64,000 nucleotides of DNA from Thiotrichaceae bacterium UBA973 (GCA_002292815.1 DBBX01000018.1:61209-125208); one strand, 5' to 3'. Shown: positions 1,232-58,077, counted from the stretch's first letter. Notes: generated by a model not told the origin, from the sequence alone. A program made the numbers and translations.

Positions 1232-1265
1232 AAAAAAACCGGAGCTAGATAATCTAACTCCGGTT
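1232..1265 (-). terminator. rho-independent terminator downstream of glnII (also A-run/hairpin on + strand, possibly bidirectional)
   Basis: Inverted repeat ccggag(1239-1244)/ctccgg(1258-1263) flanked by an A7 run (1232-1238), which is a U-run on the minus strand. Confidence 0.6.
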
Positions 1266-1289: not shown

Positions 1290-2306
1290 TTAAACGCCAG
1301 ATTCTTTCGTTGTTTTAACGATAGCTGCTGCGACCTTATAAGGATCTGCATTTGAAGCTGGGCGACGATCTTCCAAACGTCCTTTCCAACCATCTTCTAC
1401 AGTACCGATTGGAATACGAATTGAAGCGCCTCGATCAGATACACCATAGCTGAACTCATTGATAGATTGCGTTTCATGTTGACCTGTTAAACGTTGATCA
1501 TTTTCTGCGCCGTAGACACTGATGTGTCGTTGTACGTTTTTACCGAACTCATCACAGATTCTGGTAAATGTTTCCTGTTTGCCAGATTCACGCATAGCAT
1601 CATTTGAAAAGTTAGCGTGCATACCTGAACCATTCCAGTCGGTGTGACCTAGAGGCTTGGGATGCCATTCAATCGAGAGCCCATGTTTTTCAGCAGTACG
1701 TTCTAGTAGGTAACGACCAATCCAGGTTTCATCACCAGCACGTTTTGCGCTTTTTGCGAATACCTGGAATTCCCATTGACCTGCAGCAACTTCACCATTG
1801 ATGCCTTCAACATTGAGACCTGCTTCAAGACAGATATCAAGATGGTCCTCAACTATTTCTCTACCGTAAGCATTCATGGCACCTACTGAACAGTAATAGG
1901 GACCTTGGGGACGAGGGAAACCACCATGTGGAAAACCTGGAGGCAGATTAGATTCAGGATCCCAAAGAAAGTATTCCTGCTCAAAACCAAACCAGAAATC
2001 TTCGTCGTCATCTGCTTCGTCAATAGTTGCACGTCCGTTAGACTCATGTGGTGTTCCATCGGCATTTAATACTTCCGTCATTACCAGAAATGCATTCATG
2101 CGATCAGGATCAGGAAAAACAGCAACCGGTTTGAGCAGGCAATCTGAATCGTTGCCGTCAGCTTGTTCGGTAGAGCTGCCATCAAAAGACCACATTGGGG
2201 CATCTTCGACCTTACCACTAAAATCAGACTTAACTAGGGTTTTGCTTCTTAGACTTTGTGTTGGTCTGTATCCATCAAGCCATATATATTCCAACTTACT
2301 TTTCAT
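1290..2306 (-). CDS. glnII: glutamine synthetase type II (eukaryote-like GSII)
   Basis: About 340 aa with KLEYIWLDG N-terminus and GSII-like catalytic region (GMHANFS); likely start is the ATG at 2306 preceded by a GGAG RBS (the ORF-track start at 2318 is a GTG). Confidence 0.8.
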   Translation of the reverse strand: MKSKLEYIWLDGYRPTQSLRSKTLVKSDFSGKVEDAPMWSFDGSSTEQADGNDSDCLLKPVAVFPDPDRMNAFLVMTEVLNADGTPHESNGRATIDEADDDEDFWFGFEQEYFLWDPESNLPPGFPHGGFPRPQGPYYCSVGAMNAYGREIVEDHLDICLEAGLNVEGINGEVAAGQWEFQVFAKSAKRAGDETWIGRYLLERTAEKHGLSIEWHPKPLGHTDWNGSGMHANFSNDAMRESGKQETFTRICDEFGKNVQRHISVYGAENDQRLTGQHETQSINEFSYGVSDRGASIRIPIGTVEDGWKGRLEDRRPASNADPYKVAAAIVKTTKESGV

Positions 2307-2594
2307 GATGCGTTGCACTCCTCCAAATTATTTTTTCATTTTCAATCTAATGAAATTCTTAGAAAAGTAGAAGAGCAATATATGTTCCAGTCTTGTGCAT
2401 TTTGCCAAATAGACCAGTTATGAATAAAAAAATCGAAATACTATGATTTTTTATATATTAAAATCAATCATATAGTGAGATCAAAAGGAATTAATTAAAG
2501 CGGGATATAGTGTCTATTCGATTGTTATAGACTTGAACTTATAGCACGAAACGCACCAAAATAGAGCGGTAAATGGCTTTATCTGTTGTTTTCC

Positions 2595-2611
2595 GCGCTA
2601 TTATAGTGCAC
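2595..2611 (-). promoter_or_regulatory. palindromic operator-like motif GTGCACTATAATAGCGC (minus-strand reading) with embedded TATAAT
   Basis: Shares the 12-mer GCACTATAATAG with the site at 7021-7037; GCAC-N7-G(T/C)GC geometry resembles NtrC half-site spacing; lies between the Ser/Thr kinase stop and the glnII start. Confidence 0.35.
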
Positions 2612-2630
2612 TTAAATGTTAGCTTACTGA

Positions 2631-3584
2631 TTAAGACCAATCTTCTTCAAGAAGCCGAACTAGTTCTGTGCAGCTCTGCATTCTTTTATCTACCGATTTA
2701 TCAATACATTTCATAGCTGTTGATTCAAGTAAGCGAGGCACATGGATGTTTGTTAGTGTCGATGGTTTTGGCGGTGATTCATCTAAAATTTTCATTTTTA
2801 CTTCATCGACTGTCTCGCCTTCCGCCGGAGCTTGCCCTGCCAAGATTTCATACAGGACTACTCCCAAGCTAAAAATATCTGTTCTGAAATCAATATTGGG
2901 ATCTCGCCTAATTTGCTCAGGTGACATATAGGTGATGGTACCTTGTAGTTTTTCAGAATCTGTTATCGACGATACTTTTTCGTTCGAGATTGATTTAGTT
3001 GTGTTTGGTTCTTCCTTGCTGCTGCCGTCCGGATTCCATACTTTTGCCAATCCCCAGTCCAGTAATAACACTTCACCAAAAGGGCCAACCAGAATATTTT
3101 CTGGTTTGATATCACGATGGATTACCCTGTGGCTGTGGGCGTAATCTAATGCATAGCCGATTTGGATGACGACGTTAATTAATTGCTTCAGATCATAACG
3201 TTCTCGATAATCCAGAATTTCACGCAAGGTATAACCATGGACGAGCTTCATGGTGAAGTAGTACTGACCTTTTGAATCTCTTCCAAGTTCATACATTGGA
3301 ACCGTGTTAGGGTGCTGTAGCAGAGCACTTACTCGTGCTTCTCGCAAAAAACGCTGTTGTTCTATCGGGTCATTTGCGATCTCGGGGCGGAGTTTCTTGT
3401 AGCAGATTGTTCGTGATAGATGTAAATCTTTACAGGACTGAACAATGGCCTTTCCACCACGAGCAATAGTTTTAAAATAGGCATAGCGCATATTTTGGTC
3501 AAGTTTGAGTGGTAGTTCTTTGTCAGTATTTTCAAGATAGACAATGGCGTACTCATCACTTGGTGGTTCTGGAAAAGAGGTCAT
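2631..3584 (-). CDS. eukaryotic-like (Hanks-type) Ser/Thr protein kinase, kinase domain only
   Basis: VIHRDIKPENILV catalytic loop, DWGLAK (DFG-equivalent), SPE motif, Lys in ...KAIV... subdomain II; long activation-segment insert. Confidence 0.8.
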   Translation of the reverse strand: MTSFPEPPSDEYAIVYLENTDKELPLKLDQNMRYAYFKTIARGGKAIVQSCKDLHLSRTICYKKLRPEIANDPIEQQRFLREARVSALLQHPNTVPMYELGRDSKGQYYFTMKLVHGYTLREILDYRERYDLKQLINVVIQIGYALDYAHSHRVIHRDIKPENILVGPFGEVLLLDWGLAKVWNPDGSSKEEPNTTKSISNEKVSSITDSEKLQGTITYMSPEQIRRDPNIDFRTDIFSLGVVLYEILAGQAPAEGETVDEVKMKILDESPPKPSTLTNIHVPRLLESTAMKCIDKSVDKRMQSCTELVRLLEEDWS

Positions 3585-4028
3585 GTATTTGTGTTCATGT
3601 TAATCAATTTGGTCTCGTCAATTGCTGTTTACCAAACTTAATATTACCTGTGTCGTCTGTAATATTGAACGAATTTAAAATATTTATACGATATAAGCTC
3701 ACATATTGGCTCAGATCAATCACAATGGAAATAGTAGGGCACAGGCTACCAAAATGAAAGCACTGAGCTGCCAACTCATGCAACTCTTATGAGGGAACTC
3801 TAGTGCTTATTTTATAGTGCGGTTATACTCAATGGTCTGGAACAAATGCTCAAATAATAATAAATACCAAGCTGGAATGATTTTCATATTGAGCGAATAG
3901 AGAATTTGATTGAAATGCAGTGGCTAGAGCGATCTTGAGCAGGGGTCATGCACAGCTGATACATGATTTTATCTTATTACAACTAAACAATATAAAATTG
4001 ACTGAATAGTCAGTCTCAGGAGATAACG

Positions 4029-5435
4029 ATGTCGGATAATGTAATGAAATTAATAAAGGAAAACGATGTAAAATTTGTCGACATGCGTTTCTGTGATACC
4101 ACCGGTAAGGAACAGCACGTCACCATACCTGCCAGTACAGTTGATGCTGATTTTTTTGAAGAAGGCAAAATGTTTGATGGTTCTTCTATTGGTGGCTGGA
4201 AAGGTATAAATGAATCAGACATGGTCCTGATGCCAGAATGTGATACTGCAGTAATTGACCCTTTCTTTGATGATACTACTTTGATCATCCGTTGTGATGT
4301 TCTTGAGCCGGCAACAATGGAAGGCTATGGGCGCGATCCGCGTTCATTAGCAAAGCGTGCAGAAGCTTATTTGAAATCAACAGGTATTGCAGATACTGCT
4401 TACTTTGGTCCAGAACCGGAATTCTTTATCTTCGATGAAGTTCGTTGGGGTGATGAAATACATTCCGCATTCTATGAAGTTGATTCAGATGAGGGTTGCT
4501 GGAATAGTGATCGACTCGGCGAAGACGCTAATATAGGTCATCGTCCTGGTGTAAAGGGAGGTTATTTTCCTGTTCCGCCAGTGGATTCTGGCCAGAATAT
4601 TCGCTCAGCTATGTGTACGGTGCTTGAAGAAATGGGTGTAGGTGTAGAAGTACACCACCATGAAGTTGCAACAGCAGCACAAGCCGAAATTGGTACTGTG
4701 TTTAAAACATTGACCAGAAAAGCAGATGAAATATTGATCCTTAAGTATGTCGTGCAAAACGTCGCACACAGCTACGGTAAAACAGCGACGTTTATGCCGA
4801 AACCATTGGTTGGTGATAATGGTAGTGGTATGCATGTCCATCAGTCTTTGGCAAAGAATGGAGAGAACCTGTTTGCCGGTGATAAATATGGCGGTCTTTC
4901 GGATATGGCGTTACATTATATTGGTGGTATTTTCAAACATGCCCGTGCGCTCAATGCGTTTACCAATGCTAGTACAAACAGTTATAAACGATTAGTTAAA
5001 GGTTTTGAAGCGCCAACCATGTTGGCCTATTCAGCACGTAACCGTTCTGCCTCTTGTCGTATCCCTTGGGTCTCAAGCCCTAAGGCACGCCGCATCGAAA
5101 TGCGTTTTCCGGATTCATGCGGTAACCCTTATTTCACTTTCGCTTCATTGATGATGGCCGGCCTTGATGGTATCCAAAACAAGATTGATCCAGGCGAAGC
5201 ATTTGAAAAAGATTTATATGACCTGAGTATTGAAGAAGAAAAAGATATTCCAACCGTTTGTTCTTCTTTAGATCAAGCGTTAGAAGCACTCGATAAAGAT
5301 CGTGAATTCCTGACGGTTGGCGGCGTATTTACCGATGATATGATTGACGGATACATTGCCTTGAAGATGGAAGAGGTCACCCGTTTTCTTAGCACCACCC
5401 ACCCGGTTGAATTCGACATGTATTACAGTTTGTAA
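4029..5435 (+). CDS. glnA: glutamine synthetase type I
   Basis: 468 aa, canonical GSI N-terminus ([21 protein letters not shown]) and catalytic motifs ([10 protein letters not shown]); CAGGAG RBS upstream. Confidence 0.95.
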
Positions 5436-5500
5436 TATCGGGCAAGTGAGCATAATCGCTTCGGACTTCTCGGTTCTAGTTTCTACATCCATGTATATAA

Positions 5501-5527
5501 AAAACCTCCTTCGGGAGGTTTTTTTGT
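5501..5527 (+). terminator. rho-independent terminator of glnA
   Basis: aacctcc-ttcg-ggaggtt hairpin (5503-5520) followed by a T6 run. Confidence 0.75.
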
Positions 5528-5639
5528 TTAATAGGGACGTTAATGAATGTATGCGGGCGCAAGGACCTCGGCCCACCCTTGAGGGCTGTGCGCTGAATTA
5601 GAGATTGAACTGTTTATTAATAATGCGAGTCCTAATAGT

Positions 5640-6182
5640 ATGAAGATTAAATTTTTATTATTTATAAGCCTGATATTTATTCCGGCTGTTTATGCAGAGA
5701 CCGTCTATAAGACGGTGGATGCTGAGGGAAACGCCGTTTTTTCTGATGCCCCATCAGCTGGAGCCGAAGAGATAAAAGTCAAAGAGGCTCAAACAATTAA
5801 TCCCCCGAAAGCGAGATCATTTAAACTTTCGCCACCGGAAGATAATTCAAAGAAATTTAATTATACCAAGCTTGTAATAATTAACCCTGAAAACGAATCG
5901 ACGATTCATGGTGGAGAGGGCAACGTAAATATTACAGTCACACTAGAACCGGAGCTCACTGAAATGGATGTGATGGTGTTATACCTGGATGGAAAGGAAA
6001 TGCTAAGCGGAAAGGCACCGCAATTTTTATTGACGAATGTTGATCGAGGCACACATAGCATCTCGGTAGCGGTAAAAAATAAACTCGATAAAGAACTAAA
6101 ACGCTCCGCTAAAGTGACATTTCATGTTCGCAGAACATCCATCCTCAATTCAAATAAGCCATCGCTTCGGAGCACTAATTAG
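5640..6182 (+). CDS. DUF4124 domain periplasmic protein
   Basis: Signal peptide then ETVYKTVDAEGNAVFSD motif typical of DUF4124; position between glnA and ntrB, as in Pseudomonas-type gene order. Confidence 0.7.
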   Translation: MKIKFLLFISLIFIPAVYAETVYKTVDAEGNAVFSDAPSAGAEEIKVKEAQTINPPKARSFKLSPPEDNSKKFNYTKLVIINPENESTIHGGEGNVNITVTLEPELTEMDVMVLYLDGKEMLSGKAPQFLLTNVDRGTHSISVAVKNKLDKELKRSAKVTFHVRRTSILNSNKPSLRSTN

Positions 6183-6269
6183 ATCAACTCTTCACAAAAT
6201 CCTGATCCGACTGCTTTTTCCGGTGCGGTAATGTTTGTGGAAGTCTATCCAATTAGTTAAGCTCAACGT

Positions 6270-6788
6270 ATGCGTCTAATCATTAGCTTAATCTTACTAG
6301 CCAATATGGGCTCTGTCGTTGCAGAGACTGTTTATAAAACAGTGGATGAAAATGGTAATATTATCTTTACTGATAAGCCCTCCAAAAATGCTGAAGAGAT
6401 AAAACTTCAGAAATTACAAACGATTAAAAATCCTAATCCGGCTAAGCATACGCCCAGCCCAAAGCAGGCTAAAGATAAAGGGCCGATATATAAAAAGTTT
6501 TTGATCGCTAATCCAGAAAATGAATCAGGGCTTAGAAGCAATAATGGTGATGTCACTATCTCAGTAACGCTTGAGCCGCCTTTACGTGGAGGCCATCGAA
6601 TCATAATAACTTTGGATGGTGAGGAAGTGTCAAATGGTCCTGTGACTAGTGTTTCATTACAAGATGTTGATAGAGGAACACATAGCATCAGTGCCAGTGT
6701 GGTCGATGGGAAAGCCAAAAATATGATTTCAACAAGTAGTAATTTTACATTATTACGGCAGCCCGCCCCTAGAAAGACCCCGAGATAA
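6270..6788 (+). CDS. DUF4124 domain periplasmic protein (tandem paralog)
   Basis: ETVYKTVDENGNIIFTD plus conserved NPENES...VDRGTHSIS block shared with the upstream paralog. Confidence 0.7.
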   Translation: MRLIISLILLANMGSVVAETVYKTVDENGNIIFTDKPSKNAEEIKLQKLQTIKNPNPAKHTPSPKQAKDKGPIYKKFLIANPENESGLRSNNGDVTISVTLEPPLRGGHRIIITLDGEEVSNGPVTSVSLQDVDRGTHSISASVVDGKAKNMISTSSNFTLLRQPAPRKTPR

Positions 6789-7020
6789 GAAATTAACCTC
6801 AACAAGTAGAAGTTTTTCATTCTTGCGCACGTTGGAATAACGTTCTAATACCGTCTTTTTTAAACTCCTGCGTTTTCTTTTGTCCACGTGAGATATAGAT
6901 GGTCTGCTTCTTGCTCTAATCATTGTCATATTCAAACAGTTTTTTTTATTTTTCTAAGTAATTGTTTTTATTATATTAAATATAAAAAATAATTTAACCG
7001 AAATATTAATATGTGAAGGA

Positions 7021-7037
7021 CGCACTATAATAGTGCA
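7021..7037 (+). promoter_or_regulatory. perfect palindrome CGCACTATAATAGTGCA (GCAC-N7-GTGC) with embedded TATAAT, 16 bp upstream of the ntrB start
   Basis: Inverted GCAC/GTGC half-sites with the same spacing as the enteric NtrC site (TGCACCA-N3-TGGTGCA); TATAAT at 7026-7031 fits a sigma70 -10 box occluded by the operator. Confidence 0.4.
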
Positions 7038-7052
7038 ATAATAAATATATCT

Positions 7053-8120
7053 ATGGAGACTTCAGCACAAACAGCCCTACGTACAGTTGAAAATTTAGCA
7101 ACAGCTGTGTTGCTATTCGATAAGGACCTGCACCTGATTTCAATAAATAGTGCGGGTGAAACTTTGTTATCGGTTAGCCATAAGCGTGTTTCTGGTATGC
7201 AGCCCAACCAAATTTGGCCAAATTCATCATTTTTCTATGAAGCCATACAGCGTTCTTTGTATTCAGGAACAACTTGTATAGAACGTGGGATAGACCTGAA
7301 TCTGAATAACGGCCATCAGATAAAAGTAGATTGCATGATTACACCGGTTGTTGTGGATCATGCTGCTGAAGAGATTCTGCTCGAATTAGTTGATGCCCAT
7401 GGTTTTGTCAGGGTAATGCAAGAAGTGAGTCAAGAGACTGTACAAGCAGCAGCAAAAGAATCGGTGCAGGGTATGGCGCATGAAATTAAAAATCCCTTAG
7501 GTGGGATTCGTGGAGCAGCGCAACTACTCGAAAGGGAACTTGACGATAAAGACCTGCTTGAATACACCGGTATCATTATTAATGAGTGTGATCGTTTAAG
7601 AAAATTTATTGACCGTATGTTAACTACCAGTACACATCCGGTTAAATTAGACCTCAATATTCACGAGGTGTTGGAATATGTCGTTTCAGTAGTACATGCC
7701 GAAAACGCACATAAGGTGAATATCAAGAGAGATTATGATCCCAGTATTCCGAATATAAAAGCTGACCGCGAACAGATCATTCAGGTAATTTTAAATCTAT
7801 TGCGTAACGCAGTTCAGGAAATTGACAAAGATGGTCACATCACTCTAGTTACACGTATTCAACGTCAGGTGACAATCCAGCATAAATTGAATCGGCACAT
7901 AATTGTAATCGATATTATTGATGATGGTCCTGGTATACCACCAGAGATTGAGTCTGGCGCTTTTTATCCTTTGGTAACGGGTCGTGCTGAGGGAACCGGA
8001 CTTGGTTTATCAATTGCCCAACAACTTATTCAATCTCATGGTGGTTTAATAAATTATGAACGCAAAGACAATAACACCTATTTCAGTATCTTACTCCCAA
8101 CGGAGCAATGCGATGAGTAA
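7053..8120 (+). CDS. ntrB: nitrogen regulation sensor histidine kinase NtrB
   Basis: PAS-like N-terminus, H-box HEIKNPLGGIRGAAQLL, HATPase C-terminus (G-boxes GTGLGL); 4-bp overlap with ntrC. Confidence 0.9.
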   Translation: METSAQTALRTVENLATAVLLFDKDLHLISINSAGETLLSVSHKRVSGMQPNQIWPNSSFFYEAIQRSLYSGTTCIERGIDLNLNNGHQIKVDCMITPVVVDHAAEEILLELVDAHGFVRVMQEVSQETVQAAAKESVQGMAHEIKNPLGGIRGAAQLLERELDDKDLLEYTGIIINECDRLRKFIDRMLTTSTHPVKLDLNIHEVLEYVVSVVHAENAHKVNIKRDYDPSIPNIKADREQIIQVILNLLRNAVQEIDKDGHITLVTRIQRQVTIQHKLNRHIIVIDIIDDGPGIPPEIESGAFYPLVTGRAEGTGLGLSIAQQLIQSHGGLINYERKDNNTYFSILLPTEQCDE

Positions 8121-9516
8121 ACAAAAGAAAGTGTGGATAGTCGATGATGATAAATCAATTCGTTGGGTGTTAGAGAAAGCGCTAGAAAAAACGGATGTAG
8201 AGATCCAAAGTTTTTCCAATCCTGATGATGTCTTAAAAAAGATCCGTAACGAAGAACCGGATGTCATCATCTCTGATATTCGTATGCCGGGTATGGATGG
8301 GATAACTCTATTAGAGAAGATTAAGGAGCAGTCTCCAGGCGTTCCGGTAATAATAATGACAGCATACTCTGATCTCGATAGGGCTGTTTCTGCTTTTCAG
8401 GGTGGGGCATTTGAATATCTGTCAAAACCATTTGATGTCGACGAAGTCGTTAGTCTGGTCAAACGTGCTATTACACATAAGCAGAGTAATAATGATGCTC
8501 CTGTGGATGAAATAATCGATGCGAGTACATCGATCATTGGCTCAGCGCCGGCTATGCAGGAAGTCTTTAAAGCGATAGGCCGACTATCAAGTTCAAACCT
8601 GACAGTATTAATTACTGGTGAAACTGGCACGGGTAAAGAGTTGGTAGCCAGTGCCTTGCATGCGCATAGCCCCAGATCGACGCAACCCTTCGTTGCTATT
8701 AATACTGCCGCGATACCAAAAGATTTGTTGGAGTCTGAATTATTTGGTCATGAAAAAGGTGCCTTTACTGGCGCAACGGGGCAAAGGCAAGGACGCTTTG
8801 AACAAGCTAATGGTGGCACACTTTTTCTTGATGAGATTGGAGATATGCCCGCTGACTTGCAAACACGTTTACTTCGTATCCTTGCCCAAGGAGAGTTTTA
8901 TCGTGTTGGTGGGCATACACCGATTAAAGTTGATGTGCGCGTTATTGCAGCAACACATCAAGACTTGGAACAACTCGTCAAGGAAAATAAGTTTCGAGAA
9001 GATTTATTACATCGATTAAATGTTATTAGAGTTCATGTTCCGTCATTGAGAGATAGACGAACAGATATTCTTGAACTTACTAATCACTTTTTGAAGAGCG
9101 CGGCTAATGAATTAAGTGAAGAGACCAAAAGTTTATTGCCTGAGACGGCTGATTATCTTGCCGGATTACCATGGCACGGGAACGTGCGGCAGCTTGAAAA
9201 TTTTTGCCGTTGGATAACGGTAATGGCATCGGGTAGTGAGATTCATATCGATGATCTACCGCCAGAATTAAAACAGGAAACTGAGACGACAGAAGTATCG
9301 GGTGAATGGGAAACTACTTTTCGAAAATGGGTTGAGTCCAGTTTATTAAAAGGTGATACAGAAATTTTACGTGATGCTGTACCACGATTTGAATCAATCT
9401 TGATTAAAGAAGCGCTGAAAAAAACGAGTGGTCGTCGTCAGGATGCCGCGAAATTATTAGGTTGGGGGCGAAACACTTTGACGAGGAAGATAAAACAACT
9501 AGAGCTTGATGTTTAA
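8113..9516 (+). CDS. ntrC: sigma54-dependent nitrogen regulation response regulator NtrC
   Basis: Receiver domain (VWIVDDD...SDIRMPGMDG), AAA+ sigma54-activator domain (GETGTGKE, GAFTGA), C-terminal HTH; start at 8113 (MSKQKK) rather than the ORF-track 8056. Confidence 0.9.
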   Translation: MSKQKKVWIVDDDKSIRWVLEKALEKTDVEIQSFSNPDDVLKKIRNEEPDVIISDIRMPGMDGITLLEKIKEQSPGVPVIIMTAYSDLDRAVSAFQGGAFEYLSKPFDVDEVVSLVKRAITHKQSNNDAPVDEIIDASTSIIGSAPAMQEVFKAIGRLSSSNLTVLITGETGTGKELVASALHAHSPRSTQPFVAINTAAIPKDLLESELFGHEKGAFTGATGQRQGRFEQANGGTLFLDEIGDMPADLQTRLLRILAQGEFYRVGGHTPIKVDVRVIAATHQDLEQLVKENKFREDLLHRLNVIRVHVPSLRDRRTDILELTNHFLKSAANELSEETKSLLPETADYLAGLPWHGNVRQLENFCRWITVMASGSEIHIDDLPPELKQETETTEVSGEWETTFRKWVESSLLKGDTEILRDAVPRFESILIKEALKKTSGRRQDAAKLLGWGRNTLTRKIKQLELDV

Positions 9517-56007: not shown

Positions 56008-58077
56008 ATGTTCCGTTTTGCTTTAACGATCTTTATTAGTGCGTTTCTGTTGTTTCAGATTCAACCAATCATTGCCAAGTATATATTACCTTGGTATGGC
56101 GGTACTGCATCGGTATGGACAGTATGCCTATTGTTTTTTCAAGCGACATTATTATTAGGATATTGTTATGCGCACATACTGCGCATATGTTTAAAAATTC
56201 ATCATCAAGCAATTGTGCATGTATTTTTGATTGTGTGTGCCTTGGCTGTCTTACCGGTTACTCCGGATCTTTCGCTCAAACCTGTAACTCCTGAAAGCCC
56301 GTTGCTCGGAATATGGATAACTCTACTTGTCACTATTGGGCTTCCATACTGCTTAATATCTGCGTCAGGACCGTTGCTCCAATATTGGTTTAAGCAAAGG
56401 TTTCCATCTTCATCTCCATATCGACTCTATGCTTTATCAAATGTTGGTTCTTTATTAGCATTATTAACCTATCCCTTTTTAATAGAACCAATATTGACGT
56501 TACAGATTCAATCTTGGTTTTGGTCGACTGGTTTTTTCGTTTATGTTCTTCTCTGTTCAAGTTGCGCATGGTCGCTTCGCTTAGTATCTGAGAAAGATGA
56601 TCCATCAAGAAGATCAGAACAATCTGTGAATAGATGGGACGATCGAATATTGTGGGTTTTATTATCGGCATCAGCAACAACTTTGTTAATGTCATCTACG
56701 AACCAGATTTGTCAGAATGTTGCGTCAGTTCCTTTTTTATGGCTTTTACCGCTGAGTTTATATTTGCTGTCATTTATTATTTGTTTTGATAGAGCAAAGT
56801 GGTATGACCGTCGTTTCTGGTTGCCAGCATTATTCATTTCAGTCCTTTTTGGTTTGTATTGTCTACTGTCCGAAAGTTCTTCATCAATTCAATTTCAGGT
56901 ATTGGTCTATTCCAGCATCCTGTTTACAGGATGTATGTCTTGTCATGGAGAAGTGGTGCGCCTCAAACCTCATCCAGATCAACTAACGATATTTTATTTG
57001 TTGATTAGCTTAGGGGGAGCATTAGGCGGCATTTTTGTTACTTTAATTGCCCCACAGATATTTAATGGCTATTGGGAATTACAATTGATTTGTTGCGTTA
57101 TCTTAATCTTATTAGGAGCGTGTGTTTTTAAAGGATTAAGTAAGAAGCATTATTGGAGCAACATAGCTATGCAAGCGGGCTGGGTAACACTGTGTGCTTG
57201 CATAGCCATGTTTTTAGTAAAGCAGGTTTTTTTGTGGAGCCAAGACATAGTTGATGTAAAACGAAATTTTTATGGCGTACTAAGAGTACAGGATATAAAA
57301 AATATCGAGGATAGTCAGTTAGACATACGCAATTTAAAGAATGGCACTATTTTACACGGCAATCAGATGATTAATGCTCAGTATACTCGCCTATGGCCAA
57401 CGACATATTACGGTTACAAAAGTGGTATTGGTATAGCAATACATGAGCATCCTAAACATCTTTTAAAGACAAACTCTAATAATGAGTTTCGGATTGGTGT
57501 GGTAGGTATGGGCGTCGCTACCATTAGTGCTTTAGCCGCTCATAATGACGTGATTAGATTTTATGAAATAAATCCATCGGTTGTAGAATTTAGTAAAAAG
57601 TATTTTACTTATTTACAAGATACTTTAGCACGTTGGGAAATTGTTCTAGGTGATGCTCGTATTTCTATGGAGCAGGAGCTTGATATTGAAAACAAGCAGA
57701 ATTTTGATGTGCTTGCCATTGATGCATTTAGTGGTGATTCAATTCCTACCCATTTATTAACAATAGAGTCATTTAAAGTTTACTGGCAACATCTAAATGA
57801 AGATGGCATTCTCGCTATCCATATATCAAACTTACATGTTGATTTACGTCCAGTAGTTCGGCAGGCTGCAGCTGCATTGAATAAATCTATGATCCTCATC
57901 AAGAATATTGCCAATTATGAGACTTCAGCGGAGACTTCCGTTTGGGTTTTAATGACCAACAACAATGACTTCTTACAACGTGACGATGTAGTGATAAATA
58001 GTTCTAATGATACTATTATTAAAAATGTAGCTTTGTGGACAGATGATTACAGTAATCTGTTTTCAGTTTTAAAATAA
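56008..58077 (+). CDS. fused polytopic membrane domain + spermidine-synthase-like (aminopropyltransferase-fold) protein
   Basis: About 12 TM helices N-terminally; C-terminal IGVVGMGVATISA...VLAIDAFSGDSIPTHLLT...DGILAIHISN resembles the SpeE catalytic fold. Confidence 0.75.
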   Translation: MFRFALTIFISAFLLFQIQPIIAKYILPWYGGTASVWTVCLLFFQATLLLGYCYAHILRICLKIHHQAIVHVFLIVCALAVLPVTPDLSLKPVTPESPLLGIWITLLVTIGLPYCLISASGPLLQYWFKQRFPSSSPYRLYALSNVGSLLALLTYPFLIEPILTLQIQSWFWSTGFFVYVLLCSSCAWSLRLVSEKDDPSRRSEQSVNRWDDRILWVLLSASATTLLMSSTNQICQNVASVPFLWLLPLSLYLLSFIICFDRAKWYDRRFWLPALFISVLFGLYCLLSESSSSIQFQVLVYSSILFTGCMSCHGEVVRLKPHPDQLTIFYLLISLGGALGGIFVTLIAPQIFNGYWELQLICCVILILLGACVFKGLSKKHYWSNIAMQAGWVTLCACIAMFLVKQVFLWSQDIVDVKRNFYGVLRVQDIKNIEDSQLDIRNLKNGTILHGNQMINAQYTRLWPTTYYGYKSGIGIAIHEHPKHLLKTNSNNEFRIGVVGMGVATISALAAHNDVIRFYEINPSVVEFSKKYFTYLQDTLARWEIVLGDARISMEQELDIENKQNFDVLAIDAFSGDSIPTHLLTIESFKVYWQHLNEDGILAIHISNLHVDLRPVVRQAAAALNKSMILIKNIANYETSAETSVWVLMTNNNDFLQRDDVVINSSNDTIIKNVALWTDDYSNLFSVLK

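Follow-up and report, generated by a model that had tools for sequence, protein, structure and literature searches.

A conserved pairing of a sensor-less Hanks-type kinase with a type II glutamine synthetase in marine Gammaproteobacteria points to phosphorylation control of nitrogen assimilation

Background

Textbook accounts of glutamine synthetase (GS) control in bacteria cover the adenylylation of the type I enzyme (GSI), the inactivating factors of cyanobacteria and, in Bacillus, the action of feedback-inhibited GS on TnrA and GlnR. In the enterobacterial paradigm, the adenylyltransferase GlnE controls GSI by a fast, reversible covalent modification that is superimposed on transcription by NtrC and sigma-54. 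Rhizobia carry a type II enzyme (GSII) alongside GSI; their glnII gene has an NtrC-dependent sigma-54 promoter and lies next to the gene for a small protein, GstI. We know of no kinase gene adjacent to rhizobial glnII and, to our knowledge, the control of bacterial type II GS after its synthesis is largely unknown. Plant type II GS is phospho-regulated by Ser/Thr kinases and 14-3-3 proteins. A kinase encoded beside the genes of its target pathway is exemplified by AceK, a bifunctional kinase/phosphatase that switches isocitrate dehydrogenase by Ser/Thr phosphorylation. Among the Hanks-type kinases, PknG of Actinobacteria acts through the FHA adaptor GarA on KGD, GDH and GOGAT. A precedent for a Hanks-type kinase acting on GS itself is PrkC of Bacillus subtilis, which phosphorylates GlnA in vitro (PMC6213207).

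Here we analyze a 64-kb stretch of DNA, termed the window, in which the gene for a Hanks-type kinase is adjacent to a gene for GSII. No description of such a kinase-GSII pair was found in the literature searched, and the adjacency suggests a phosphorylation switch, not previously described, that acts on a key enzyme of nitrogen assimilation. The pair was found in many marine gammaproteobacterial genomes, and its carriers are abundant, uncultured ocean bacteria that live with scarce, pulsed nitrogen. Such a switch, if true, would constitute a new mode of GS control, with a dedicated kinase (and in some lineages a phosphatase) encoded beside GSII, and the kinase would be among the few bacterial Hanks kinases with a single predicted metabolic substrate.

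Gene content of the locus

The original prediction described a block of seven genes, comprising glnII, the kinase gene, glnA, two DUF4124 genes, ntrB and ntrC. All seven were recovered with the coordinates and identities that it had given (Table 1). Profile searches scored GlnA at 854 bits to PRK09469, NtrB at 314 bits and NtrC at 725 bits, and both DUF4124 proteins scored above the Pfam cut-off. The ntrC start is probably at 8113, since the receiver domain of the longer ORF starts only at residue 26. For glnII the start is the ATG at 2306 and not the GTG at 2318, which opens the mechanical ORF and overlaps the ribosome binding site. The GC content of the locus is unremarkable and its position is in the core, oriC-proximal region.

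Table 1. Features of the kinase-GSII locus, in window coordinates
Feature	Position	Strand	Remarks
Intrinsic terminator 3' of glnII	1237..1265	-	13-bp stem, then T-run
glnII, type II glutamine synthetase, 338 aa	1290..2306	-	Domain searches and full-length alignments
glnII RBS, GGAGGAG	2318..2324	-	Kept in spacer alignment
Sigma-54 type -24/-12 promoter element of glnII, TGGAACATATATTGCT	2374..2389	-	
Proximal NtrC-box-like palindrome	2553..2567	.	GCAC-N7-GTGC with 1 mismatch
Distal NtrC-box-like palindrome	2595..2609	.	42 bp centre-to-centre from proximal
Stand-alone Hanks-type Ser/Thr kinase, 317 aa	2631..3584	-	
Divergent glnA/kinase control region	3585..4028	.	
glnA, type I glutamine synthetase	4029..5435	+	Tyr397 kept; context of the kinase-GSII module
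DUF4124 protein a	5640..6182	+	Signal-peptide-like N-terminus; context
DUF4124 protein b	6270..6788	+	Signal-peptide-like N-terminus; context
Perfect NtrC-box palindrome, GCACTATAATAGTGC	7022..7036	.	17 nt upstream of ntrB
ntrB (glnL), nitrogen sensor histidine kinase NR(II)	7053..8120	+	
ntrC (glnG), sigma-54 enhancer-binding response regulator NR(I)	8113..9516	+	ORF open from 8056

The kinase

Pkinase (PF00069; 143 bits against a Pfam cut-off of 31.7) covers residues 35-312 of the 317-residue kinase, and the domain search matched no second domain. This agrees with the original description of a kinase without a sensor domain. The generic model NF033483, for the PASTA kinases PknB/Stk1, gave 239 bits against an equivalog cut-off of 450, and the match covers model positions 6-265 of 563, that is, the kinase domain only. 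Neither a transmembrane segment nor a PASTA domain was found in the protein, which ends at residue 317, and it falls below every NCBIfam equivalog cut-off. Its N-terminus carries a family-conserved extension of 34 residues with the motif FPEPPxDxYxxxYLExTDxxLPxK, and, compared with PknB, its activation loop carries about 17 inserted residues.

The catalytic residues of the kinase align with those of PknB. K63 (in 'CYK') and E82, which are invariant in 21 members of the family, correspond to positions in the 'VAVK' and 'RREA' of PknB. The family alignment also shows invariance of H156, R157, D158, K160 and N163 in the catalytic loop (HRDIKPEN, residues 156-163), of SPE at 221-223 and of R301. 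D176 is retained in the DWG at 176-178, where Trp has replaced Phe across the family. The glycine-rich loop reads 'ARGGKA', a degenerate form in which G43 alone is invariant. It is of low confidence in the AF2 model, as are the first 58 residues of the protein and the activation loop. The possibility of a pseudokinase had been raised with the original prediction, in terms of the VAIK lysine and the HRD aspartate. Both are present as K63 and D158 and, since the family shows no variation at any catalytic residue, the protein does not appear to be a pseudokinase. The best Foldseek matches are PknB kinase domains (E 1.5e-16, probability 1.0); the TM reaches only 0.5-0.6, a consequence of the poor modelling of the N-lobe and activation loop. 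With dN/dS values of 0.04-0.07, the kinase is under strong purifying selection. As judged from its sequence, it is an intact, soluble, sensor-less enzyme of the Hanks type.

The type II glutamine synthetase

The window GSII carries the Gln-synt_N and Gln-synt_C domains and is about 50% identical over its full length to yeast Gln1 (3FKY) and Streptomyces coelicolor GlnII (4BAX), with residues 6-336 giving E-values of 7e-96 and 1e-95, respectively. In these alignments the motifs FGxEQEY, NxEVxxGQxEFQ, WNGxGxH, RGASIR and EDRRP are all present. The protein scored 394 bits to the NCBIfam GlnII model, under its equivalog cut-off of 500 bits. Members of the kinase-linked GSII clade are at least 79% identical to the window protein and other representatives are at most 56% identical. 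By predicted fold and domains the window GSII is a type II enzyme, yet it belongs to a distinct subfamily. Residues specific to the clade include T226, directly N-terminal of the DWNGSG active-site motif. The protein is an exact match to P0121/P0122, and the GSII region shows a mosaic ancestry relative to its flanks.

Conservation of the kinase-GSII adjacency

The kinase family is represented by at least 591 matching stretches among GTDB species-representative genomes. Of 81 kinase loci, 58 have GSII as the direct neighbour of the kinase, separated from it by 90-667 nt with no intervening gene. Four relative arrangements of the two genes were seen, and these fall in different clades of the kinase tree; the adjacency has therefore outlived at least three rearrangements. 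It persists over a range in which kinase identity falls to 62% and synonymous sites are saturated, and it is kept where glnA, DUF4124 and ntrBC are absent; the glnA/ntrBC context is missing from most kinase loci. The reverse test, anchored on 4 in-clade GSII proteins picked regardless of kinase, found Pkinase as the direct upstream neighbour at 5 of 5 loci, in three wider contexts. The conserved feature is thus the adjacency of kinase and GSII, which is kept in close relatives and well beyond, and not placement between two GS genes. The kinase as first described, wedged between GSII and GSI, is found in the window and its closest relatives only, many relatives having no glnA at the locus.

A PP2C phosphatase gene (Pfam PP2C_2), convergent with the kinase gene and directly after it, was found in 8 of 8 loci of the GSII>STK arrangement, in 7 of 7 divergent loci and in locus L063. 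Two rearranged clades therefore carry a GSII-kinase-phosphatase module. No PP2C phosphatase was detected in the window (tblastn, E<=1e-3), nor was a linked phosphatase found in the window's own STK>GSII clade.

One mostly coherent kinase clade of 19 loci, 61-66% identical to the window kinase, has heterogeneous neighbours and no GSII near the kinase within the available flanks. It keeps every family-specific feature of the kinase. In mirror-tree comparisons, kinase divergence correlated with that of flanking genes at r 0.70-0.77 and with that of GSII at r 0.41-0.55. The kinase tracks its flanking genes better than it tracks GSII, which gives no strong signal of co-evolution.

Transcriptional signals

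The -24/-12 element of glnII, about 57 nt ahead of the start codon, is one of only two 1-mismatch matches in the window. Of the 28 closest GSII-containing loci, 26 keep an element at -64 to -92, and of 29 more distant loci 27 have related GG-N10-GC elements ahead of GSII. The two NtrC boxes precede the -24 element by about 165 and 205 nt. Among 57 loci, at least one NtrC box precedes GSII in 51 and at least two in 31; the background density in the window is 10 matches per 64 kb. Boxes and -24/-12 element alike are kept inside spacers that have otherwise diverged. The only perfect NtrC box in the window is the one upstream of ntrB. We predict that glnII forms a separate transcription unit with a conserved enhancer of two NtrC boxes and a sigma-54 promoter. 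From these predicted signals, GSII should be made under nitrogen limitation via the adjoining NtrBC, and the NtrC of the locus is the probable activator of the glnII promoter.

A search of the divergent glnA/kinase control region for NtrC boxes, allowing up to 2 mismatches, found none, and no convincing -24/-12 element was detected there. The region includes an inverted repeat, AATATTAC-N11-GTAATATT, at 3640-3666 upstream of the kinase and a palindrome, GACTGACTATTCAGTC, at 4000-4015 just ahead of the glnA ribosome binding site. Thus glnA appears to lack a conserved NtrC/sigma-54 enhancer-promoter of the glnII kind. The kinase gene should therefore have a promoter of its own that does not depend on sigma-54; kinase and glnII are never co-transcribed and always form separate units.

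Proposed function and alternatives

From gene context we infer that GSII is the substrate of the kinase. The two proteins, joined in some lineages by PP2C, would form a functional module in which the NtrC-induced, non-adenylylatable GSII is reversibly phosphorylated, a proposal to which we give about an even chance of being correct. The kinase would phosphorylate GSII on Ser/Thr, adjusting its activity after synthesis, and the phosphatase would reverse the modification. A type II enzyme, which has no adenylylation loop, would in this way gain a fast covalent switch akin to the GlnE adenylylation that GSI retains. Our guess at the direction is that phosphorylation might turn GSII off after a nitrogen upshift. 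Candidate phosphosites are the clade-specific Ser/Thr residues, for example T226, which is a guess from conservation alone. Because the kinase has no sensor domain, its input may lie in the state or abundance of the substrate, in autophosphorylation of the long activation loop, or in the N-terminal motif acting as a docking segment. The extra layer of phosphorylation on nitrogen assimilation that was originally envisaged is retained here for GSII, to which the kinase is linked by adjacency, but not for GSI, NtrBC or the DUF4124 proteins. It had also been suggested that the kinase supplements or replaces GlnE/PII control. The module more likely supplements it, because GlnA keeps the adenylylation tyrosine (KDLYDL, Tyr397), and nothing tested supports replacement.

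The same evidence of adjacency would also fit an arrangement in which GSII is a sensor or partner of the kinase, which would bind GSII, read its ligand-bound or feedback-inhibited state and phosphorylate other targets, in a manner resembling the signalling of B. subtilis GS to TnrA and GlnR. A kinase without a sensor domain would suit this scheme, as would the persistence of a kinase with all family features in the clade without nearby GSII and the closer tracking of genome background than of GSII. However, the pair has no conserved third partner gene, for an FHA protein or regulator for example, among the neighbours examined, and the adjoining PP2C suits simple reversible modification equally well; we consider a sensor role for GSII unlikely. 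Kinase and GSII might instead have been acquired jointly and kept together by inertia, the kinase serving an unrelated process. Both genes are "eukaryote-like", the GSII region is of mosaic ancestry, the kinase of one clade lies away from GSII, and co-transcription is never seen. Nevertheless, a pair that has survived at least three independent rearrangements and changes of wider context, down to 62% kinase identity, that PP2C has joined in two clades, and that resides in a core, oriC-proximal locus of unremarkable GC content is quite unlikely to be a historical relic.

That the kinase acts on some other nitrogen component (GSI, NtrB/NtrC, PII or DUF4124) and lies near glnII merely through the clustering of nitrogen genes seems to us very unlikely. 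In its favour, the kinase gene of the window's lineage lies divergent from glnA and close to ntrBC, and PrkC does phosphorylate a type I GS in vitro. Yet most loci have lost the glnA/ntrBC/DUF4124 context while GSII adjacency stays, the DUF4124 proteins are unlikely substrates of a cytoplasmic kinase because of their signal-peptide-like N-termini, and GlnA, with its adenylylation tyrosine, is already under covalent control. Matches to the PADLOC PD-T4-6 (up to 217 bits) and mad6 (187 bits) models, and weak NCBIfam matches to MADS6 and PglW, raise the question of an anti-phage defence kinase of the PD-T4-6, Stk2 or MADS type. The PADLOC scores do not exceed that of the generic PknB model and the MADS6 and PglW scores are far under the NCBIfam cut-offs, which argues that all reflect general similarity of Hanks domains. 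Moreover, the gene is syntenic, strongly conserved by purifying selection and located in the core chromosome beside housekeeping genes, its family is rare to essentially absent in viral contigs, and the neighbours examined include no defence genes. A role in defence is therefore highly improbable.

If reversible phosphorylation of GSII by the adjacent kinase is correct, a sensor-less Hanks kinase and a PP2C acting on an NtrC-induced type II enzyme could be the first dedicated kinase/phosphatase switch for a bacterial GS. It would represent eukaryote-style phospho-control in widespread marine Gammaproteobacteria, running alongside GSI adenylylation or possibly replacing it where the locus no longer includes glnA. 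We advance this broader interpretation tentatively, as somewhat short of an even prospect.

Comparison with known systems

PknB, PrkC and Stk1 are the best sequence matches of the window kinase (E 1e-38, about 30-35% identity) as well as its best structural matches, and they share its catalytic fold and the motifs that carry the invariant catalytic residues. The window kinase differs from them in lacking a transmembrane, PASTA or other sensor domain, in having DWG instead of DFG, and in its activation-loop insertion and family-specific N-terminal motif. Whereas those kinases are pleiotropic, it is tied by gene context to one metabolic enzyme. PknG and GarA likewise place a Hanks kinase in control of flux at the glutamate/glutamine node, but the present pair has no linked FHA protein, and the kinase is presumed to act directly on the enzyme encoded next to it. 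Plant GS offers a parallel in the Ser/Thr phosphorylation of a type II enzyme, although that system is eukaryotic, its kinases are unrelated and its 14-3-3 proteins have no equivalent here. As in rhizobia, a type II GS accompanies GSI and is predicted to have a promoter of the NtrC/sigma-54 type; the window GSII differs in its adjacent kinase and in forming its own clade, below the GlnII cut-off. AceK resembles the proposed system in being a dedicated kinase, encoded beside the pathway genes of its target, that acts on a single enzyme of central metabolism; here the architecture is of the Hanks type and the phosphatase, where linked, is a separate PP2C. Relative to GlnE and GSI, the proposed switch would use Ser/Thr phosphorylation rather than Tyr adenylylation, an unrelated modifying enzyme and a different class of GS without the adenylylation loop, and it has no evident PII/GlnD input. 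The proposed logic is nonetheless alike, in that covalent modification of GS would be layered on NtrC/sigma-54 control.

Gene content of the locus

All of the ORFs of the original prediction, which had placed a Ser/Thr kinase gene between the genes for two glutamine synthetases, are present where it had located them, and their identities were confirmed by matches to Pfam and NCBIfam models.

Features of the glutamine synthetase locus (window positions)
Feature	Position	Strand	Remarks
glnII, type II glutamine synthetase (GSII)	1290-2318 (ORF)	-	Gln-synt_N and Gln-synt_C domains
Predicted sigma-54 -24/-12 element TGGAACATATATTGCT	2374-2389	-	ribosome-binding site downstream
Putative NtrC boxes, GCAC-N7-GTGC palindromes	2595-2609; 2553-2567		42 bp apart, in the kinase-glnII spacer
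Hanks-type kinase, 317 aa	2631-3584	-	Pkinase, 143 bits, residues 35-312; almost nothing beyond the kinase domain
Inverted repeat AATATTAC-N11-GTAATATT	3640-3666		approximately 56-82 nt upstream of the kinase start
Perfect palindrome/hairpin GACTGACTATTCAGTC	4000-4015		directly upstream of the glnA ribosome-binding site
glnA, type I glutamine synthetase (GSI)	4029-5435	+	GlnA, 854 bits
DUF4124 proteins (two)	5640-6182; 6270-6788		Pfam/NCBIfam
Perfect NtrC-box palindrome GCACTATAATAGTGC	7022-7036		17 nt upstream of ntrB
ntrB	7053-8120		NtrB by Pfam/NCBIfam
ntrC	8056-9516 (ORF)		NtrC by Pfam/NCBIfam

The window GSII scores 394 bits against the NCBIfam GlnII model, short of the equivalog cut-off of 500 bits, and the kinase reaches no NCBIfam equivalog cut-off. 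GlnA keeps the tyrosine of the adenylylation site (KDLYDL, Tyr397). The real start of glnII is the ATG at 2306, replacing the GTG at 2318, because the latter overlaps a GGAGGAG ribosome-binding site and the proteins of relatives begin MKSKLEY; ntrC most likely starts at 8113. No credible Rfam family was found among RNA elements in the locus.

GC content is unremarkable over the whole block. The window also holds hemB, glyQS, mnmG-rsmG-parAB, the atp operon and a gene for a GlmU-type NTP-transferase/hexapeptide protein. Between 35429 and 49081, mnmG (gidA), rsmG (gidB), parA, parB, the ATP synthase genes and the GlmU-type gene follow the classical oriC-proximal order, which places the locus in a core, origin-proximal part of the chromosome. 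A 689-aa ORF at 56008-58077 had no Pfam match at E<=1e-5.

The tandem DUF4124 paralogues between glnA and ntrB share a mature N-terminus (ETVYKTVD...) that follows a signal-peptide-like start, and the pair is kept upstream of ntrBC throughout the lineage. The suggestion that these proteins might be substrates of the kinase is unlikely to hold, because both carry signal-peptide-like N-termini.

A distinct family of Hanks kinases

A search of 5.8 billion proteins with the kinase returned thousands of matches. The best 120 of these are all full-length, approximately 316-350 aa long and 66-93% identical, and derive from gammaproteobacterial and Pseudomonadales MAGs. An alignment of 21 family members shows K63 (the beta-3 lysine), E82 (the alpha-C glutamate), HRD 156-158, K160, N163, D176 (the DFG aspartate, here DWG), SPE 221-223 and R301 to be invariant and to line up with the corresponding residues of PknB. 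Among solved structures, the catalytic domains of PknB, PknA and Stk1 are closest in both sequence and fold. This invariance of all catalytic residues rules out a pseudokinase, an objection that the original prediction had itself anticipated. Values of dN/dS against close relatives are 0.04-0.07, similar to those of GSII and GlnA. The gene encodes a soluble Hanks kinase that is intact, lacks a sensor domain and is under purifying selection.

Two features are specific to the family: a 34-residue motif kept at the N-terminus, FPEPPxDxYxxxYLExTDxxLPxK, and about 17 extra residues inserted into the activation loop. AF2 confidence is too low for interpretation in the N-terminal 58 residues and in the activation loop, although the motif and the loop insertion are both conserved in sequence. 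The kinase represents a new, well-delimited family inside the Hanks superfamily.

Linkage of the kinase to one clade of GSII

One genome per GTDB species was scanned, and at least 591 stretches were found to encode a relative of the kinase. The best 80 were taken with 10-kb flanks, every window protein was compared with them by tblastn, and a neighbor-joining (NJ) tree of the kinases was built. GSII directly adjoins the kinase gene in 58 of the 81 loci, counting the window, with gaps of 90-667 nt; in three others (L003, L027 and L063) the sequence ends on the side where GSII is expected. The pair occurs as STK>GSII>, the arrangement of the window (STK being the kinase; 42 loci), as GSII>STK> (8), divergently as <GSII STK> (7) and convergently as STK><GSII (1). 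Each arrangement falls in its own clade of the NJ tree, and at least three rearrangements have therefore left kinase and GSII together. The reverse search, anchored on four in-clade GSII proteins picked for contig size alone, found a Pkinase gene directly upstream of GSII in 5/5 loci, in three different wider contexts. The linkage of the kinase to this one GSII clade is thus specific, reciprocal and resistant to rearrangement.

The conserved unit is the kinase-GSII pair. Its synteny is kept in relatives, is reciprocal and has outlasted rearrangements, which dismisses a chance insertion of the kinase gene. The predicted position between two glutamine synthetase genes fared less uniformly: adjacency to GSII stands, but the glnA/DUF4124/ntrBC context was found only in the wider lineage of the window. 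Even there, many loci lack glnA at the position that it normally takes ahead of DUF4124-ntrBC, and DUF4124 directly adjoins the kinase or the kinase-GSII pair (L009, L011-L013, L016-L024, L026, L039, L088 and L089). Independent gene calls confirm the absence of glnA beside DUF4124 at L088 and L089.

The sole exception in the window's own clade is L008, where a transposase occupies the expected place of GSII. In addition, GSII is absent from the available flanks throughout one mostly coherent clade of the kinase tree (19 loci, 61-66% identity). Loci lacking GSII share no common alternative partner, their neighbours being a mixture of SDR, MBL-fold, TauD and unknown proteins. The kinases of the 19-locus clade keep every family feature, and essentially no specificity-determining positions separate GSII-linked from unlinked kinases.

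The window GSII aligns along its entire length with yeast Gln1 (3FKY) and Streptomyces coelicolor GlnII (4BAX) at approximately 50% identity and keeps the catalytic motifs. GSIIs linked to the kinase group tightly in one clade, 79-98% identical to that of the window, and the next full-length GSII cluster representatives are at most 56% identical to it; the linked proteins are a distinct subclade of type II glutamine synthetase. Comparison of 57 kinase-linked GSIIs with 150 representatives identified residues fixed in the linked clade and rare elsewhere: T226 (as a rule Gly; directly before DWNGSG), T252, S7, F187 (usually Gly), A235 and N239 (usually Thr) and R314 (usually Tyr). These may be regulatory or interface positions; T226, T252, S7 and T337 are the predicted candidates for phosphorylation.

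The nearest out-clade GSIIs (52-56% identity), which lie on short contigs, have no adjacent kinase. One such contig, L081, carries a PII-like C-terminal fragment directly upstream of GSII (2-202); in another, L082, genes for an NtrB-like histidine kinase and one other protein come directly downstream (1111-2740), a glnII-ntrB-like arrangement. No fusion of GSII to a kinase or phosphatase was found among 10 long GSII representatives. All of the relatives are MAGs, and the labels Nitrosopumilus, Myxococcota (L053) and Deltaproteobacteria (L069) probably reflect mis-binning. The MAG labelled Nitrosopumilus carries two inverted copies of the kinase-GSII locus (L037 and L038) about 40 kb apart on contig CAXQPB010000198.1, which probably results from mis-binning of a gammaproteobacterial contig or from an artefact of assembly.

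A PP2C phosphatase in two clades

At L052, a locus related to that of the window, the gene convergent with the kinase encodes a PP2C phosphatase (Pfam PP2C_2). By tblastn, homologues occupy the matching position in 8/8 GSII>STK> loci, in 7/7 divergent loci and in L063; none was detected in the window or the STK>GSII> clade. Both clades therefore have a three-gene module of GSII, kinase and PP2C, the mark of a GSII-linked system of reversible phosphorylation.

Predicted regulatory sequences

The 312-nt kinase-glnII spacer is weakly conserved overall, with conserved islands. Its two GCAC-N7-GTGC palindromes fit the classical NtrC box consensus, TGCACCA-N3-TGGTGCA. The predicted -24/-12 element TGGAACATATATTGCT is one of only two matches with one mismatch in the 64-kb window, and among the 28 closest loci having GSII, 26 carry such an element at -64 to -92. 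A relaxed scan, run without a chance control, found GGAAC, GGCAC or GGTAT followed by N5 and TTGCA upstream of GSII in 27/29 more distant loci; these matches span all arrangement types. Of 57 loci, 51 have one or more NtrC boxes upstream of GSII and 31 have two or more; the whole 64-kb window holds just 10 matches. The box GCACTATAATAGTGC before ntrB is the only perfect NtrC box in the window, consistent with autoregulation of ntrBC by NtrC.

The divergent glnA-kinase spacer (3585-4028) contains no NtrC box even at two mismatches, and neither of its strands has a credible -24/-12 element; control of glnA or the kinase gene by NtrC/sigma-54 was rejected on these grounds. The predicted NtrC/sigma-54 promoter architecture is thus found on glnII and is absent from glnA and the kinase gene. 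The type II enzyme, rather than GSI, looks like the NtrC-induced glutamine synthetase of this lineage. In rhizobia, glnII is under NtrC/sigma-54 control, following the same logic.

A terminator follows glnII in the window, and a strong terminator behind GSII in 8/8 GSII>STK> loci led to rejection of co-transcription of GSII and kinase in that clade. The kinase is therefore transcribed apart from GSII in every arrangement, and an operon does not account for their adjacency.

Other conserved elements were noted near the kinase and glnA. The palindrome GACTGACTATTCAGTC, which was flagged as resembling a terminator on the minus strand, is retained by the closest relatives (L001, L004-L006 and L010) and matched no Rfam family; it could act as an operator or form a structure in the 5' UTR. 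The inverted repeat upstream of the kinase is conserved in L001, L004 and L010 and in part in L005, and may be an operator or promoter-associated element. In the GSII>STK> clade (L040, L042, L044, L050, L054, L057, L059 and L060), the gap between the two genes carries a conserved motif, CTTGGGCTT ... TCTGTCAAACTA, which comes after the strong terminator and immediately before the start of the kinase gene; it may be a promoter, possibly of a leaderless or short-leader transcript.

Ancestry of glnII and the kinase gene

Mirror-tree comparison gave r of 0.41-0.55 for kinase versus GSII and 0.70-0.77 for kinase versus flanking genes, with a partial correlation of 0.52. There is no strong signal of kinase-GSII co-evolution, and the discordant gene is GSII, not the kinase. 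Relative to their flanks, glnII and the 3' part of the kinase gene have a mosaic ancestry (window 1500-3000 versus L001, L002, L004, L005 and L010). Relatives with nearly identical flanks (nucleotide identity of 0.85-0.92 from glnA to hemB) fall to 0.66-0.79 across this segment; L002 has more distant flanks (0.74-0.80) and a closer glnII (0.85-0.91). The pattern suggests that glnII was at the centre of an allelic replacement or recombination event. Movement of kinase and GSII as a single cassette is not supported overall, kinase distances tracking the flanks more than GSII.

Possible function of the kinase-GSII pair

We propose that GSII would be induced by NtrBC under nitrogen limitation, that the separately expressed kinase would phosphorylate GSII and so tune its activity, and that PP2C, where present, would undo the phosphorylation. 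As to direction, our guess is that the kinase inactivates GSII after a nitrogen upshift. We give this scheme as a whole roughly an even chance of being correct.

Other readings appear less probable. GSII might be the sensor or partner of the kinase, with substrates elsewhere, which we regard as unlikely; somewhat less likely again is a purely historical adjacency. That the kinase targets another component of nitrogen regulation seems improbable. The PADLOC PD-T4-6 models match the protein at 217 bits, as a defence kinase might; however, the generic PknB model does at least as well, the gene is a syntenic part of the core chromosome, and viral contigs are almost devoid of the family, making a defence role very improbable.

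Kinase/PP2C modules and covalent control of glutamine synthetase are both already known, and for phosphorylation of a glutamine synthetase by a Hanks kinase there is a single in vitro example, that of GlnA by PrkC (PMC6213207). Searches of the full-text literature turned up no account of a dedicated kinase gene next to that of GSII, whether accompanied by a phosphatase gene or not; the pattern is strong and widespread here. The proposed phosphorylation of GSII would be functionally analogous to the adenylylation of GSI by GlnE, a modification that GSII is structurally unable to receive.
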